From Octopus vulgaris (lineage: Eukaryota), in the NCBI GenBank assembly GCA_951406725.2, contig OX597827.1:62062001-62126000 (forward strand): a stretch of 64,000 nt of DNA, written 5' to 3'. The position numbers and the translations under genes are program-made. Numbering within the stretch: the stretch's first letter is position 1; each line of letters begins with the position of its first letter. Positions 3,750 to 63,036 of this stretch are shown here, in pieces. Below the pieces are notes generated by a model. That model searched no databases, was not told where the DNA came from, and saw only the letters and a list, made by a program, of their open reading frames with translations.

Positions 3750-3910
3750 GTATTGTTTACCTTATTTACATTATTTACATTTGACGGATATTTGTCCTCA
3801 TCTTGTTTGTTGTTAACACAATGTTTCGGGTGATATACCCTCCAGCCTTCATCAGGTGTCTTGAGGAAATTTCGAACCTGGGTTGTCATTCCTAAAGTAT
3901 TTTTCGATGT
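3750..3910 (-). mobile_element. Penelope-like terminal repeat fragment with degenerate minimal HHR (3815-3860)
   Basis: Near-identical to 5540-5660; minus strand GACAC-CUGAUGA-A-GGCUG...CACCC-GAAAC-AUU-GUGUU. Confidence 0.75.
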
Positions 3911-5519: not shown

Positions 5520-6750
5520 TGTTTAAGAGATGAGGAATTATGTACATTATTTACATTATTTACATTTGACGGGTATTTGTCCTCATCTTGTTTGTTGTTA
5601 ACACAACGTTTTGGCTGATATACTCTCCAGCCTTCATCAGGTGTCTTGGAGAAATTTCGAGGATAGTCACATGACTGGTCTTAAAAAATTTTGTAGGTTT
5701 CCGCTATGTCCGTGTGTTAGTATGAAGTGAAAATGTTTAGCGTCGTAATTTAAGGCTGACACGGTTGACTGAAGATGTCTAGTGGTAATACTAAACAATC
5801 AATGCTCTGAATGTTTTCTGCTAAGTGTTTGTAGAGAATGAACACGTGATTAAGTTTAGAACTTTCTATACGCTTCCCGTTACGTACGTGCTTAGTGTCA
5901 CATGGCAGAATATTTTGCCCCTAAAATGATGGCTGACACGGTTGAGTGAACATGTCTAGTTACAATCAAGGCACTTCAAATTTAATCTGTTTGGTGGGAG
6001 AGTTGACAAGAGTCATTTATATGTAGTCCAGTGGTTAAAGTTTAGGTTGTTAGCTGTGTAGGTTCCTCATGTTAAGTGGCAGAATGAGTTTTATGTGTGA
6101 ATAGTTATTTGTGTATGTACTTTGTGAAAGTTTGTTAAGTATTGGTTTGTACTTTTGTATGAAAGTATTCTCTTTGTTTATCCGTGCTACATCTGTGGTT
6201 TTCACTGAACATAGGCAGGGTGGGAAGACCTGGAATTTAGGGGACTTATTTTTTGCACATATGTCTATGTGTCTACTCAGTGCAATCTGTCTAGTACTGG
6301 GGTCTCGTATTTGTTGCCGGTGGATGGCCAGTCTATTTCTTAGAGTAAGATTCGTTTGACCTATTTAATCTTCATGATATCCTTGACATTTGATAGCGTA
6401 AGCAAATTCCTTGAAGAACATGTAAAATGATTTTTAACGGTAAAAATCTGTCCTGAGTTGAATTTGTATGATGTGTCTTCAATAAGATTGACGCAAGTCT
6501 CACAATTGGGGCGGCCACATTTTTTGACTGTTGGTGTAGGAGTTGTGGAAGGTAATTTAGTACTTTTTTTTGAGAAACTTTGATTGTCTTTTGATTTGAT
6601 TGTTTTGTGTATTTCGAATGCTTGTTCCATTCTTGGGTCTTATCTTAGTAGTGGAATGCTCTGGTGGATAATATTGTAAACCACTGTGTTTCTTGGGTTT
6701 CTGTGTTGTAATAAAGGGTAGAGTATTGGATGTACCTGTTCTACCTGTTC
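5520..6750 (-). mobile_element. Penelope-like element 3' fragment: frameshifted GIY-YIG endonuclease, 3' UTR and terminal HHR
   Basis: ORF 6361..6630 has CGRPNCETC...FTVKNHFTCSSRNL. It continues out of frame as GQTNLTLRNRLAIHRQQI...LSRHIDIC...KENTFIQKYKPILN, the CCHH plus GIY-YIG signature of Penelope elements. Confidence 0.9.
5600..5645 (-). ncRNA. Minimal type I hammerhead of the Penelope terminal repeat (G12A decayed)
   Basis: Minus strand GACAC-CUGAUGA-A-GGCUG...CAGCC-AAAAC-GUU-GUGUU; helix II GGCUG/CAGCC; palindromic AACGUU. Confidence 0.75.
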
Positions 6751-8419: not shown

Positions 8420-8600
8420 CTAACCACTACACATTCTTTATTTTCTCTCCTTGTTTCTTTCCGTGTTCCTTTCTGTGGAAGAGCGTAGGCTCGAAACGTT
8501 AAAGACTTTTTCATTTCCCGAGCGTTATACTAAAACATGTTTGTTGTCTACACCACCTGACTTCGTCATTTTGTTTCTTTTTTTGGTGAATTCTCTCTAT
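8420..8600 (+). mobile_element. ~190-bp repeat family H2 carrying a minimal HHR with A6U (8469-8504)
   Basis: CUUU-CUGUGGA-A-GAGC(GUAG)GCUC-GAAAC-GUU-AAAG; homologous copies at 47975, 59983 and 60162. Confidence 0.8.
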
Positions 8601-19416: not shown

Positions 19417-19512
<96 letters not shown>

Positions 19513-19513
19513 G

Positions 19514-20207
19514 AGATGCGGTCAGAGCGACGAAACCGTTCTGCACGCACTCGTTCAGTGTCCAACAATTTCCGACCTGTGGGCTTATGTCGAACAACTG
19601 CTGTCACGTGTGGGACGAGTCGGTTTATCAGCTGAGTCTATCGTCAATATTGTCACGCCTCCTTCCTTCAAACGGGAAGGAAGAGCTATTTTCATCATCC
19701 TTGTGGCTATGGCGAAAGAATGTATCTGGTGGACGCGTCTGAAAGGATTGGAGACAAACACTTTCCTCTCTGGTCAATCTCTCATCAACTTCTTCAAGTA
19801 CCACTTGAAAAGGAAAGTGAGAGTAGAGAGGCAAGTTTTGTCTAGCGAATGTTTTAAAAAAAGATGGGTGAATGTAGCAAGAATGGCACGTATGAATGAC
19901 GAAGCCACCTTGAGCATAGTCCTATGAACCCAGAAATCGAAAACAGAGAGTTGCTTATTTGCAAAAAAAAAAAAAAAAGAAATATAAAATGTGACATCAT
20001 TGACCGAGGTTACCGTGGTCTTTTCCGTAGGCTTTTCTTTGCACGGGTAAACCTCACCTGTCCTCCCCTTTACACTTCATATTGACATTTCTGTGATAAC
20101 GATCCCTATTGATCAATTTCCCCCCCCCTTTTTTTTTAAACCCCCCTTTTTTTGTCCTCTTTCTCTCCTTTTACGATCCCTTTTGATCGAAACTCCCCCT
20201 TCCTTTT

Positions 20208-23240: not shown

Positions 23241-23244
23241 ATAA

Positions 23245-23627
23245 ATGGGTACACGACGTCACAAAACGTAAACAACATGAATTACGAAAACAACATGAAA
23301 TGGCCTAACGGGCCTTCCTATTCGTTTTCGTTTAGTTTGTTGTATGTCTCCACTATCCTGCTTCTGTTACCGACTTTGACCCTCCGCGAAATCCCAAATA
23401 TTATTTTGGTTCGCGGGAGCAACTGTTTTTCAAAGCCTCATATTGTCGTTAATTGCACGAAATGTGGAGTAGATGAACAGCCGACAACTGATGAAGGGTC
23501 GATCTTTATGTCACTTGTCTTGTTTTCCATTTGTTTCTCTCGTTGTTCGCATACCCAAGTTTGCCTTCGTAATCCATGTTGTTTTCGTATTTCATGTTGT
23601 TTACGTTTCGTGAGGTCCTGTACCCAT
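23245..23627. mobile_element. Element with 53-bp terminal inverted repeats, structured interior and a CUGAUGA core
   Basis: 23245-23297 vs 23575-23627 inverted; inserted between (TA)n and (TATC)n. Confidence 0.75.
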
Positions 23628-23634
23628 ATACGCA

Positions 23635-36902: not shown

Positions 36903-36960
<58 letters not shown>

Positions 36961-36962
<2 letters not shown>

Positions 36963-37516
36963 GCCCTGATGCAGTACCAGGCAGTGGCTCTCATGGCTTC
37001 TGATCTTAACTGATTGGAAGTGTCATCATGTACATTGTTTTGTCTTGGTATAAAAGATGGGCTACAGCAAATATTCTGCTCAATACCACAGATTTGCTTG
37101 TCAGTTGTTTGACCTTAACCAGTTGAGCATGTCCCTTAGTGGCTGACGATATGTGCATCTCTGATCACGAGCAGAAGTAGTGGGGGAGCATCATAGCCAT
37201 GTGTTGAGAGGGATTCTTTGGGGTTTGAATAATTCACCTCTGGAAACATGGGTGGTTCTTTCAACATCCTTAAACAACCCTTATTCAGGGACCTTTTGAG
37301 CGGGATGGGCTACTCAACCTGAAGAAAATTCTAACTGGGTCCCACCTGCAAGGTCATGTGCTGTTTATCGTGATATGAGATCACCATGTCGCGCACATAT
37401 GGTTGTGATGCATGTGCCTGGTGTACCCTTATCAGACGGGTAGTCATGATGGGTATATTGGGCTTCGTATATTTTACCCCAGTGTCACTTTGATGGCATG
37501 CACTGCTCTCTCACTC
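36961..37516. mobile_element. ~555-bp (TAA)n-embedded element, copy 1
   Basis: Bounded by (TAA)n on both sides; highly similar to 37577-38125. Confidence 0.85.
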
Positions 37517-37576
<60 letters not shown>

Positions 37577-37577
<1 letters not shown>

Positions 37578-38125
37578 TGCCCTGATGTAGTACCAGGCAG
37601 TGGCTCTCATGGCTTCTGATCTTGATTGGAAGTGTTATCATGTACATTGTTTTGTCTTGGTATAAAAGATGGGCTACAGCAAATATTCTGCTCAATACCA
37701 CAGATTTGCTTATCAGTTGTTTGACCTTAACCAGTTGAGCATGTCCCTTGGTGGATGACGATATGTGCATCTCTGATCACCAGCAGAAGTAGTGGGGGAG
37801 CATCATAGCCATGTGTTGAGAGGGATTCTTTGGGGTTTGGATAATTCACCTTTGGAAACATGGGTGGTTCTTTCAACATCCTTAAACAATCCTTATTCAG
37901 GGACCTTTTGAGCGAGATGGGTTACTCGATCAGAAGAAAGTTCTAACTGGGCCTCACCTGCAAGGTCATGTGCTGTTTATCTTGATATGAGATCACCATG
38001 TCGCGCACATATAGTTGTGATGCATGTGCCTAGAGTACCCTTATCAGACGGGTAGTCATGATGAGTATACTGTGCTTCGTATATTTTACCCCAGTGTCAC
38101 TTTGATGGCATGCACTGCTCTCTCA
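37577..38125. mobile_element. ~550-bp (TAA)n-embedded element, copy 2
   Basis: Same start ATGCCCTGATG and end GCACTGCTCTCTCA; same orientation; separated from copy 1 by (TAA)n. Confidence 0.85.
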
Positions 38126-38128
38126 TAC

Positions 38129-38198
<70 letters not shown>

Positions 38199-46243: not shown

Positions 46244-46536
46244 TGGAGACTTGTTTGTTTTATGTATGTATTCTCATGCATATAGTTGCATGTTTAGGCA
46301 TGCGCATATATATATATAAATATATATATATTTATACATATATACATGAACACAAATGTATGTCATACACATAGTCATCTATATTCTTTCTATTACGCCC
46401 CCACACATGTATATGTCGAGGGCTTATATTGCCCAGTATTAGACTATTTTCTTTAGTCATTGCGCGTTGATCGCTAGAAGCTTTAAGCTTATAAAATATT
46501 ATTCTATATACATACATACATACATACATACATACA

Positions 46537-46595
<59 letters not shown>

Positions 46596-46668
46596 AAATA
46601 GATGTGTGTATTTTTCCCTTGTTACTATACATATCCATCATATTCTGTTTATTGAGTTTCATTTCTTC

Positions 46669-46757
46669 ACTTCCCTGAAGAGAAGGTTACATTGTTTTTC
46701 ACTATTTTATTCCTTTGGAATATTACCAGTGATATCTTCGAAACATGTGTCGGAAGT
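46669..46757 (+). ncRNA. Canonical type I hammerhead ribozyme with extended helix II
   Basis: ACUUCC-CUGAAGA-GAAG...CUUC-GAAAC-AUGU-GUC-GGAAGU: intact core, 6-bp helix I, GUC site at 46749-46751. Confidence 0.9.
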
Positions 46758-46873
46758 AAAAGTATTTGAATAACACCTGCGTTCAACTCCATTTATATAT
46801 ACTAATACTAATACATTTGTTTGTTTGTACTCCACCTGCCTTTGTCTTTTGTTTATTTTCGTAAACCTCCCCG

Positions 46874-46914
<41 letters not shown>

Positions 46915-46942
46915 AAAAAAGCAACAAGAATGGATCAATATA

Positions 46943-47027
46943 TCGGTACAATTGTTTCGTACGAGGACATCTTTAATAAAGCTACAAAAATTGCAGTAAA
47001 TATAGGTGGCTCGTACTCATCAGCCGA
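46943..47027 (-). ncRNA. Canonical type I hammerhead ribozyme
   Basis: Minus strand UCGG-CUGAUGA-GUACGAG...CUCGUAC-GAAAC-AAUU-GUA-CCGA: intact core, 7-bp helix II, palindromic ACAAUUGU; distal helix I GGAU/AUCC. Confidence 0.92.
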
Positions 47028-47235
47028 AAAAACATCCGAGATTCCCAAACATCAAAGGAGGTAATGTTACACTCGTGAAACATCATGGAAAATTCTATAA
47101 AAATGCTTTTTTCCTATTTGTAATCACCCCACTTTGTCGTATGGTTAACACCATATAGATTTCCGGTGCATCCAAGTTAAGTACCACATTCATGTGAATT
47201 CATTAGAACTCACTTGAATCTCAATTGCTTAAACC

Positions 47236-47285
<50 letters not shown>

Positions 47286-47974
47286 CTAATTATGAGCGTT
47301 GTACTCTGTTGTGTACAGAAGTGACTTATTGCTGAATATGTCTACCTCCGACAAATTAACTGCATACTGAGTTCTTTGAGGTAGCTTTCCTTCATAATAC
47401 AATTTCTGCAAGTTGGATATAAAATTCTTCTTTTCGGTACATTTGTTCATTCCGGGAAGTTTTATAATTCAACGCCATGCGGCAAATAGCCTTATGCAGA
47501 GGCTGACAAGCAGATTCTGTTTTGTCACAGTGCCTGATGAGAGAGATAATGTTTTCGAAGCCGAGAATTATATAACGGGAAACTGCCCACGGGATCAATG
47601 AATCACCTGTCTGTCAACTGACCGAAGAATCAGCAATTCACATGATACAACCGTTATTGTGCAGTGTCCATGGTCAACATGCTTAATTTTGTCTCCGTTC
47701 TGTATCTTCGCTTCTCTATCTCTCATAGACACACATACACACACATACACACGTACACACACATACATGCACACGTATACGCACACACACATATATATCT
47801 ATATATACACACACTCACACGCGCATACGCAGAATATCCGACTCCTTTTCATATTTTACACGATGGAGGGTGAAGCTTTTTGTATACTAATGTCTCAATA
47901 TATATTTGAACAACTATTATTGAGTCGTGTTTGCAAGCTCTTCCTTCTCATACATACACAGATATATACATACG

Positions 47975-48199: not shown

Positions 48200-49144
48200 T
48201 CGTTTGAATGCGGCCATGCTGGGGCACCACATTCAAGGGTTTTAGCCGAGCAAATCGACCCCAAGACTTATTTATTATTTGAACCTGATACTTATTCTAT
48301 CGGTCTCTCTTTGCCGAACCGATGGGATTTTGTTCCACCAGGGTTTGCAGAATGCCTCCGTCGAATTCTACAGATCTTCCAGGATGAGGCTTGTCTTCTA
48401 GTCTGCAGTTTTCGGCTCGGAATTTCAGGAAGGACTGCTGACACTGGTTTACGCTTATTGTCTGATCCCCCCGTATACCGCATTAATATTCCTCGCACTT
48501 TCCCTTGCGTTGTTGCCTTTATTGAGTTTATAAAGCAAAATATGCCGAATATCCTCCTTTGTCACTTTCGTTATAGCTTTGAAAAACCAACCGTTAAAAT
48601 CAAACTCCACTCTTCAAAACTTGCACTAAGAATAAGTACAAGGTAAACTTATTACCTGCTTTTATAGCAAGTTGGTGCAGGTAGTTTATCTCGTACTCTT
48701 CCGACTTTTAGTTCATGCAATTGAAAAACCGCATTATTTATGGGATGACCCTATATATATATATATGCATATATATGTGTTTGCATATATGTAAAGATAT
48801 ATATATATATATATGCATATATATGTGTTTGCATATATGTAAAGATATATATATATATATATATAATATATATATGTATATATAAATATATAAATAAATA
48901 TATATTTAACATATATATGCTCACACACGACCAGCATTAAACTTCTCACTCATACTATTATCGAACCGAAAGTCTAAATACGGTCCTTCCGTAGCACTTA
49001 CATAGCCTTTCCAGCCAGCTTGGGTCTTCTGGATACCAAAACCTCTTATATATATACATACATATACATATATATGTATATATATATATGTGTGTGTGTG
49101 TACTTACATATAAGAGACCAAAGTGTACATACGCCCATTATGTA

Positions 49145-49539
49145 TAAAGAAAGCAATACAAAAAATGGGACAAGAGCATAAAACATCCAGACAGATGATA
49201 CAAAAAAGGGACAAGAAAAACACGGATGGGTCATTCGAAGTTTTCTTTCCTCAGTCGAGTTCTAGATTATCTTTGCAATTTCGGCTGGTTATACTCGAGA
49301 TTCGTCACATTCGCTGCTTTCTTCCAAGGAATCAAATGCTCTTAGCTTAGTTTTTCTTTGGGGCTGGTCAGATTGGAGCAATCTCGAATATAACCAGCCG
49401 AAACTTCAAAGATAATCTGGAACTCGACCGAGGAAAGAAAACTTCGTGTTTTTTCGTGTCTGGATGTTTTGTCGTCCTTTTTTTGTATCATCTATCTGTC
49501 TGGATGTTTGGCGTTCTTGTCCCATTTTTTGTATTCCTT

Positions 49540-49545
<6 letters not shown>
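49145..49545. mobile_element. Nested foldback element (outer and inner inverted arms)
   Basis: Outer arms ~49155-49215 vs ~49470-49535; inner 67-bp arms 49236-49302 vs 49380-49446; TA-rich flanks. Confidence 0.85.
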
Positions 49546-49578
<33 letters not shown>

Positions 49579-57220: not shown

Positions 57221-58061
57221 ACGTATGTCGACGTCATCGGTTCCATCGGAACCGGTCGGTGTACTTTAGAAACTTTCCATTCATGCCGCGTGTATAATAA
57301 CCAAGTTCCAGTGCACTAACATACGAGCTTAACTAACACACGAGCGCCCAGAGTAGCTGCACCAGCGGCACGAACTGAACCGTTCTGTACCTTACGAACC
57401 GGTTTCAAATCTCGACTAAAATTCATTCGGTTCAAATGACGAAAAAAAAAAAGAAAACAGAAGAAAGAAAAAAAACGGATAACCGTAACATAATGGCAAA
57501 CAGCTTCCCGGTTTATCGTCTGTGGTAATCATGTACCTAAAGATGAATGGAGCTATAAACGTCAGTGGCACTGTCCTGTATAGGACGCCACACCTGGTTG
57601 GCAATTATATGTTACGATTCCGTATTGCTGTGGAGGCACATGGCCTAGTGGTTAGAGCAGCAGACTCGCGGTCGAGGGATCAAAAACGGCCAAAATCACA
57701 TTTAAGAGAAATCTTCAAAAGGAATGAAAAACAAAAACTTTTACCTTGTTATTGTAATTCGGTCAGACCTAGATTTCAAATTTTTTTTAGCAAATAAAAT
57801 AATTTGCTAGGCGAAATTTCTCATTAGTGACCTCACCATAACACTACCATATAATTAAGAGATGAATAACACGTGTCTCATCGTTATACATTATAATTTT
57901 TCAAATTCACCGCGCAAGCGCAGTTTCAGTTGGCAGTAAATAAATGAATGCCGAACTAAATTTTTAAAAATTGCTAAATATACATAAAATATAGGGTAGT
58001 GAGTTTTTTTTTTTAGAAATTTCACTACCAGTGGCCTAGCATGTATAAAGAGTCAATAGAG

Positions 58062-58584: not shown

Positions 58585-58672
58585 CTTCCTTGATGAGAAG
58601 ATTGCATTTTTTTTACACCGTTTATTCCTTTGGAATAAAACCAATGTTGTCTTCGAAACATGTGTCGAAAGT
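58585..58672 (+). ncRNA. Hammerhead ribozyme, decayed paralogue of 46669-46757 (C3U)
   Basis: CUUCC-UUGAUGA-GAAGA...UCUUC-GAAAC-AUGU-GUC-GAAAG; downstream flank also homologous. Confidence 0.8.
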
Positions 58673-58872
58673 AAAAGAATTTGAATAGCATTTGTGTTTA
58701 ACTCCATTTATTTACTTATAATATACAAATTACTGCACATTAACCCGGGGTTTCTACCTTTGAATAGGTCGCTACATCCTTATTACTTGCGTGAATTTTG
58801 CTACCCTGGTAACTGTTTATTGAATGTTAACGGTAAACAAAGGATAATTAATTCATCCATTTACATATATAT

Positions 58873-62074: not shown

Positions 62075-63036
62075 ATAATACGTTTGACTCTTTCCCATAC
62101 GGAATTCTTTTTTTTTTGATTTTGATTCCTTTATCTAATTAATTCATTTGACTGCAAACCAAGACTTTTGATGCGAAAACAGCCTCGGATATATTTCTGC
62201 CACAACATAGATGTCCTCAGTATGATTTTAAAGAACATCTGGTAGTGGTGGCCTCGGTTCGGAAGTTCCATGGTATCGAGCAATGCAGAACCACTTCTTA
62301 GCCACTGGTGTTGCTCGGTTTGCTTTGATGCGGAGTAATAACCCTTGTCACGGTCCCAGGTACAGTTCAATTAGCATGTCACGGAATTTCCTCCAGAAGG
62401 GTCACTCAGAAATACATAGATATGTAAGGGGTAAACATTTCTACATGCTGCGTTGGATACGATAGCTGTTCGCCTGGTATGTTGTTTTTGTTAATTCATT
62501 ATACATCTTGAATTATGCTTGCACTGAGGAGTAAAAAGTGCATAAATCTGCACCGATTACGAAATCACAGTGTGATATGCGGCTAAATTCTGTTTTTAAA
62601 TGACCTGCTTCGAGAATTGGTTTCGGTACGATGTGTTTATTTATTTTAGTAGTTTTGACTTTAAGAGACTCTCCTAGCGTGTGGCATCTATGTGTAAGAG
62701 TGCCCTCTATATAATATATATATATATTTCTCAGGAACTATTAGTCCTGACACCGTTTATTAACCGGTGTTGTTCAAACGATGAATAGCCCACGCGCAAT
62801 CCAATTGGTTCGTTTCGGTCTCTTACTTTATTATTATTATTAACTTTTTTATAATCATCTCATAATAATGACCTTTATGACTCGTATTACTACCTCAGTC
62901 CATCTAAATGTATATATTTGTCACTACCTGTCATAAATAGCCTTTTTCTATCTGCAATATGCATTTTCGTTGATTTTTCATATTTTATCCTTATATTTCC
63001 ACGTGTATTTTATATTTTCTTTTCGTAATATATTTC

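Follow-up and report, generated by a model that had tools for sequence, protein, structure and literature searches.

The window analysed here, a 64,000-nt stretch of Octopus vulgaris DNA (contig OX597827.1, 62,062,001-62,126,000, assembly GCA_951406725.2), is rich in microsatellites and repeats, 59% of it being low-complexity or repeated within the window; coordinates below are window positions. The locus under study holds two hammerhead motifs, HHR1 and HHR2, which face each other across a (TA)19 tract, a convergent arrangement that an earlier note on this DNA had described and that we confirm. Each rides in a short element fragment (H1 and H3, respectively), and the end of a third element, H2, lies between them (Table 1). 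We searched the window with a strict hammerhead descriptor, using 100 block-wise dinucleotide shuffles of the window as the null, and placed contigs from 4 of the 24 listed runs (X1, X4, X8 and X13) on 46590-47725 at 85% likeness; depth figures are summed contig depth, not copy number.

Table 1. Features of the hammerhead locus and the second H1 copy (window positions).
Feature	Coordinates	Strand	Remark
(TACA)n(TA)n(TG)n microsatellite	46508..46592	.	left target of HHR1 insertion
Probable inverted H1 arm	46593..46638	-	distal 3' end of tail; points into left microsatellite
Sense arm of H1	46654..46799	+	5'-truncated; ends at short 3' end
HHR1, type I hammerhead	46669..46757	+	predicted cut 46751/46752
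3' end of H2	46805..46874	+	5'-truncated, without hammerhead; inserted at TA end of H1
(TA)19	46875..46912	.	common end of H2 (+) and HHR2 arm (-)
Hammerhead arm of H3	46910..47103	-	5'-truncated at 47103; ends at short 3' end
HHR2, type I hammerhead	46943..47027	-	predicted cut 46947/46946
Inverted tail arm of H3	47104..47236	+	14-nt copy of short 3' end, then 119 nt to long 3' end
(TA)20	47237..47276	.	right target of H3 insertion
Third CUGAUGA core (47534)	47526..47585	+	changes at A15.1 and U16.1; misregistered stem I
Second, uninverted H1 copy	58585..58865	+	full tail; decayed core with changed C3 and a mismatch in stem I

Judged by their sequence, HHR1 and HHR2 are genuine type I motifs with complete cores. 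The descriptor scan recovers HHR1 with a 6-bp stem I, the core CUGAAGA/GAAA and a GUC site, and HHR2 with a 4-bp stem I, the core CUGAUGA/GAAA and a GUA site, at the same coordinates and cut sites that the earlier note had given for two intact hammerheads, one on each strand. Both have the core segments C3-A9, G12-A15.1 and U16.1-H17, three helices with a closing stem I, a G10.1-C11.1 pair and a helix II domain of 58 nt; the two domains are equal in length and have no sequence in common (421 of 500 shuffles score as well). Helix III is in each case 2 bp on an 8-nt self-complementary strand, a perfect 8-nt palindrome in HHR2, with calculated energies of +2.4 kcal/mol as a hairpin, -6.0 and -6.4 as homodimers and -2.4 as a heterodimer. 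The variants listed include none at an invariant core base and one at N7 of HHR2, small numbers that carry little weight. The strict descriptor matches three times in the window (46675+, 47023- and 62524+) and once in total over the 100 shuffles. Active-fold probabilities from ViennaRNA (1e-3 to 1e-7 for HHR1, 2e-2 to 4e-4 for HHR2) were left unused because they do not discriminate, the 62524 motif with its long helix III scoring equally low (1e-2 to 3e-5). That third strict match (62519-62582, +) belongs to another family, with a helix III of 5 bp plus A-U and a helix II domain of ~30 nt, and would be a better candidate for monomer cleavage than HHR1 or HHR2. A hammerhead-like motif at 57827 (-) has a 42-nt helix II domain and a changed G5; long helix II domains recur across several families of the genome.

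The locus is a stack of three insertions from three high-copy families. The earlier note had recognised a piece of H2 tail between the hammerheads and proposed serial insertion of different hammerhead elements into TA repeats, and both proposals are supported: the sequence between 46805 and the (TA) tract is the 3' end of H2, a family with four longer copies elsewhere in the window, and contigs part at 46796-46801 and at 46805. Other H1 copies exit the locus at 46796-46801 into TA-rich sequence, and the contig loose ends before 46805 are upstream H2 sequence in all four runs; the truncated H2 end therefore adjoins the TA end of H1. The H1 sense arm, flanked by contig loose ends before 46654 and behind 46796-46801, is 83% identical to 58585-58714, and its short 3' end lies ~45 nt beyond the HHR1 cleavage site. 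H1 has one further copy in the window, 12 kb distant and with a broken core. Depth in X1 reaches 1.2e5-2.5e5 in the HHR1 bins, 1.8e6 over the H2 tail and 4e4-1.5e5 in the HHR2 bins, against a flat, single-copy-like 46 over 47289-47725 (46 in X4, 5 in X8), a contrast of three to four orders of magnitude whose pattern is the same in X4 and X8. All five H2 ends in the window, like the ends of H1 and H3, run into TA or CA units, while just 4% of non-tract positions have a (TA)4+ tract at a distance of 10 nt or less; H1, H2 and H3 thus all display an AT-rich/microsatellite insertion bias, and the contig loose ends are TA-rich. Words from H1 and H2 found no locus in either of two metagenome scans. 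The minimal hammerheads of H2 copies at 8473, 48033, 60017 and 60226 (+) have U or C for core A6 in all four cases, a bulged A after the A6 position and then an ACGU palindrome without a loop; the A6 change may be family-wide, since the H2 tail has the highest depth.

The H3 insertion, which bears HHR2, is head-to-head inverted, and this is well supported. A 14-bp inverted match links 46910-46923 with 47104-47117, and the loose ends before 47104 are the end of the HHR2 arm in three of the four runs (X4, X8 and X13), among the rows listed. These data together identify 47104-47236 as the downstream tail of H3, joined head to head to the hammerhead arm, and both 3' ends of the inverted insertion face (TA)n. 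Support for a head-to-head inversion of the HHR1-bearing H1 insertion is moderate and comes from a 46-nt AT-rich alignment and from joints within single contigs. When reverse-complemented, 46593-46638 aligns to the end of the other H1 copy (58819-58865) with a local score reached by 3 of 1000 shuffles, the forward-orientation control being unremarkable (118 of 300), and its end-anchored score was reached by none of 2000 shuffles and stands at 36 against 34 for the best non-self of 338 TA-adjacent controls. Single contigs join 46617-46624 to 46666, 46692, 46719, 46729 and 46742; such varied joints to the HHR1 arm are expected if other loci share this build with different truncation points. Two more head-to-head inverted elements, both bounded by microsatellites, lie at 23242-23632 and 49110-49551 (arms 91% and 73% alike), and in the former a CUGAUGA core is accompanied by a matching stem I, but GAAA is absent.

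The earlier note counted a third core, at 47534, which does not hold up as a ribozyme. There, CUGAUGA is followed by a stem II of 4-5 bp, by GAAG in place of GAAA and by a 3-bp stem; GA replaces UH, with G for U16.1, and a 4-bp stem I pairs only when shifted. With two invariant positions changed and stem I misregistered, this sequence is predicted to be incapable of forming a canonical hammerhead core and to be non-functional. Neither the strict nor the relaxed hammerhead scan matched it, and comparison of 47280-47720 with Rfam gave one unrelated match and no hammerhead. The core lies within 47289-47725, the stretch of flat, single-copy-like depth. Bare CUGANGA has 28 occurrences in the window (shuffles, 21.0 ± 4.7), and 31 of 100 shuffles contain a half-motif resembling the 47534 core. 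With a looser descriptor, devised once the core had been seen, only 4 of 200 shuffles match, which keeps an old, decayed hammerhead in play, with about even chances against coincidence.

The designation of the region as a ribozyme hotspot fares accordingly: its two intact hammerheads stand, its third core does not, and the clustering is weak. The relaxed scan finds nine hammerhead-like motifs in the window (seven matches over 30 shuffles), which with two decayed copies from BLAST give 11 hammerhead-derived positions, two pairs of them no more than 350 nt apart. Uniform placement yields a mean of 0.61 such pairs (P = 0.11) and placement anchored at TA tracts a mean of 2.1 (P = 0.61); for the three strict matches alone, P = 0.03. 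Because the window holds ~11 hammerhead-derived motifs, the hotspot is not unusual. What the first reading overlooked is the internal inversion of the hammerhead insertions, the extreme abundance of their families and the position of the third core outside any high-copy family.

We propose that the locus is most likely ordinary retroelement debris, not a host transcript-cutting device, because the hammerheads ride in short, very abundant element fragments piled into one TA repeat. As to the elements themselves, we consider it probable that the pile consists of three independent 3' (pseudo-LTR) ends of Penelope-like element (PLE) families, or of non-autonomous derivatives, in a TA-rich microsatellite. 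As in a pseudo-LTR, the hammerhead lies near the 3' end and has a self-complementary helix III, and a head-to-head inverted arm is accompanied by a tail at one end (well supported in H3, moderately in H1). PLE pseudo-LTRs are described as carrying hammerheads, mostly as dispersed singles, with opposite-strand pairs 100-700 bp apart representing truncated PLEs; in the same account, a short helix III impedes monomer cleavage, and a minimal motif is inactive alone and weak as a dimer (PMC4209133). Frequent head-to-head inversion, a one-sided tail and a (TA)n bias are reported for PLEs (PMC8557442, PMC3846280), and a review notes that PLEs tend to insert beside earlier copies (PMC6765202). The protein of a lizard PLE nicks AT-rich DNA on both strands and extends them, initiating at two internal sites that mark the limits of the tail and working from uncut RNA. 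Cleavage by the hammerhead of that element needs the protein, and no RNA-seq read ends were found at the cleavage site (PMC11167929). Octopus vulgaris has PLEs (PMC13282606, in the main text of which the word ribozyme does not occur).

By this mechanism, the PLE endonuclease would nick AT-rich DNA and the reverse transcriptase (RT) would copy a short stretch of uncut element RNA, the copies in H1 and H3 both spanning the scissile bond, and the TA tracts left at element ends would be targeted again by later insertions. The hammerheads would be cargo of the elements, made to act as homodimers in tandem element transcripts; at this locus, where each is alone on its own strand, they probably cut little or nothing, and the convergence of HHR1 and HHR2 would be a by-product of the inversions. 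Several observations count against a PLE origin. Tails of ~150 and 119 nt exceed the 30-40 bp described; a 58-nt helix II departs from the reported helices of 4-8 bp and could stabilise a monomer; and the cores of HHR1 and HHR2 are intact, in contrast to the decayed state of most other motifs in the window. Within the window, we could link none of H1, H2 and H3 to an RT or endonuclease ORF. A stop-broken, PLE-type GIY-YIG remnant with a CX4CX2C linker does occur at 6053-6639 (-), Neptune/Nematis-like by the description in PMC8557442, with a second copy of its 3' end at 3855 (3752-3875, -) and a decayed minimal hammerhead-like motif at 5640, ~400 nt downstream of it (region 5520-6640, -). PLE membership of H1-H3 is unproven because this remnant belongs to another family.

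The main rival, an origin of H1 and H3 as non-LTR retrozymes, i.e., non-coding units of 200-400 nt that borrow an RT, represented here by solo truncated copies, seems to us unlikely, even though their helix III architecture matches that of the 'canonical' metazoan type I hammerheads (PMC4209133) and no ORF is linked to either. Non-LTR retrozymes are described as tandem repeats that self-cleave to circular RNAs (PMC7229834; 10.64898/2026.07.22.740005), whereas no tandem H1 or H3 unit appears among the tandem-repeat rows listed (1-49089) or in a BLAST of the family pieces against the window, and the contig joints include no head-to-tail return, a weak point given that contigs break at repeats. 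The retrozyme and PLE readings overlap, because retrozymes, including solo copies, have themselves been argued to be non-autonomous PLE derivatives (preprint 10.64898/2026.07.22.740005). We attach next to no credence to the motifs being coincidental or an artefact of assembling microsatellite-rich DNA. Folding z-scores are about -1, no listed contig spans the whole stretch, and Rfam matched no hammerhead model in the window, either at the gathering score or among the 91 matches at E ≤ 10, most of which are microRNA models hitting microsatellites, likely owing to the long helix II of HHR1 and HHR2. Against this stand the excess of strict matches over the shuffles, the second H1 copy in the window and the abundance of relatives in all four runs; shuffles and relatives refute chance for HHR1 and HHR2 as motifs and leave it plausible only for the third core.

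The earlier note had further suggested that any transcript crossing the locus could be cut; on this reading, the host would have kept the convergent pair as a two-strand transcript-cutting device, e.g., in an intron. We regard such a device as very improbable. Both cores are intact, with the cleavage triplets GUC and GUA, and axolotl retrozyme hammerheads do cut weakly as monomers (6% and 22% in 1 h; PMC7229834); slow monomer cleavage by HHR1 and HHR2 is possible by analogy, and the long helix II might help a monomer. Yet the families are very abundant, the cluster fits the TA-anchored null, and cleavage in the lizard PLE depended on the protein and left no RNA-seq read ends at the cleavage site (PMC11167929). 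Efficient cutting of host RNA is unlikely because helix III is of the dimer type, with 2 bp and a self-complementary loop, the two motifs lie on opposite strands, and neither has an intact same-family partner on its strand in the window.

No host exon was detected either: none of 126 scanned ORFs (from 239 candidates of 45 aa or more, the 125 that are not repeated, and one added by hand) matched a plausible host-gene family in Pfam at E ≤ 0.01, a scan that would miss short exons. An intronic position is thus conceivable, and the claim that crossing transcripts could be cut is not supported. Three of the 126 ORFs had a Pfam match at this threshold, namely a mariner transposase HTH remnant (48458-48613, -; PF17906, E 1.8e-9), the GIY-YIG remnant and a weak bacterial family. 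Among other features of the window, 19511-19924 (+) is a probable C-terminal remnant of a non-LTR retrotransposon ORF (PF13966 in two of four relatives), and 36904-37575 and 37519-38187 form an (AAT)n-bounded tandem duplication of ~615 nt, 95% identical. Run X13, RNA only by guess, has no contig on 47274-47725 and a 167-nt contig reaching just 10 nt beyond the HHR1 cut, neither of which is evidence on transcription.

Twin priming, known for L1, offers a tentative account of how the inverted PLE ends arose. Two nicked target strands would each prime RT on one uncut RNA, one start lying at the long 3' end and the other at the short internal 3' end, and the resulting cDNAs would then be joined by their heads. 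Three features would follow from such a process: the exact make-up of the inverted H3 arm (the tail plus 14 nt), the likeness of both ends within each family, and the high frequency of PLE inversions with a one-sided tail. We hold it to be possible but doubtful, our confidence staying low because the locus offers no more than two junctions. An alternative proposal for PLE inversions invokes self-priming on an antisense template (PMC3846280), and a search by title of the openly accessible literature found no PLE-specific account of twin-primed inverted tails. If true, twin priming would account for both the head-to-head inversions and the one-sided tails of PLEs, and the H3 junction would be a clean sample of it.

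Hammerhead-bearing PLE ends are already known as a kind. The PLE pseudo-LTR hammerheads in PMC4209133 resemble HHR1 and HHR2 in being type I, with a conserved core, the G10.1-C11.1 pair, a short self-complementary helix III and a stem I of 4-6 bp, and in occurring as dispersed singles or as opposite-strand pairs a few hundred bases apart. They differ in helix II, which is 4-8 bp there and 58 nt with an inner hairpin here; HHR1 and HHR2 also lack an unpaired base between A9 and 10.1 and any linked ORF. Insertions of endonuclease-bearing PLEs share head-to-head arms, a tail at one end, two alternative 3' ends, targets of the AT/TA type and a template that the hammerhead has not cut (PMC3846280, PMC8557442 and PMC11167929); unlike those described there, the present ones have tails of ~119-150 nt, not 30-40, and an inverted H3 arm made of the tail plus 14 nt, not of a second pLTR copy. 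Animal non-LTR retrozymes are likewise non-coding, low in G+C and high in copy number, with a dimer-type type I hammerhead (PMC7229834; 10.64898/2026.07.22.740005), whereas the copies here are truncated, inverted and TA-bound, with no tandem units seen in the window.

Octopus Naiad PLEs share the (TA)n preference and inverted copies, and some Naiads have a 'half core' with long spacing; unlike H1 and H3, they are reported to lack canonical hammerheads (PMC8557442). When 10 short window words (nine from the locus, one from the H2 hammerhead) were compared with the supplement of that paper, in which line breaks can hide matches, nine were unmatched and the tenth had a single match, within unrelated coding sequence; by eye, the end of Naiad_Obim as displayed seems dissimilar to the locus. 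By title, the hammerhead, Penelope, octopus and cephalopod literature yielded no mention of the H1-H3 families, Repbase and most subscription papers being outside this scope. Two points are minor novelties: two unrelated families carry hammerheads with a helix II of 58 nt that escape Rfam, and the H3 junction is suggestive of twin priming. The locus itself, one of many TA tracts with retroelement ends, matters little; it is useful in providing a sample of long-helix-II hammerhead families that are very abundant and go undetected by Rfam.
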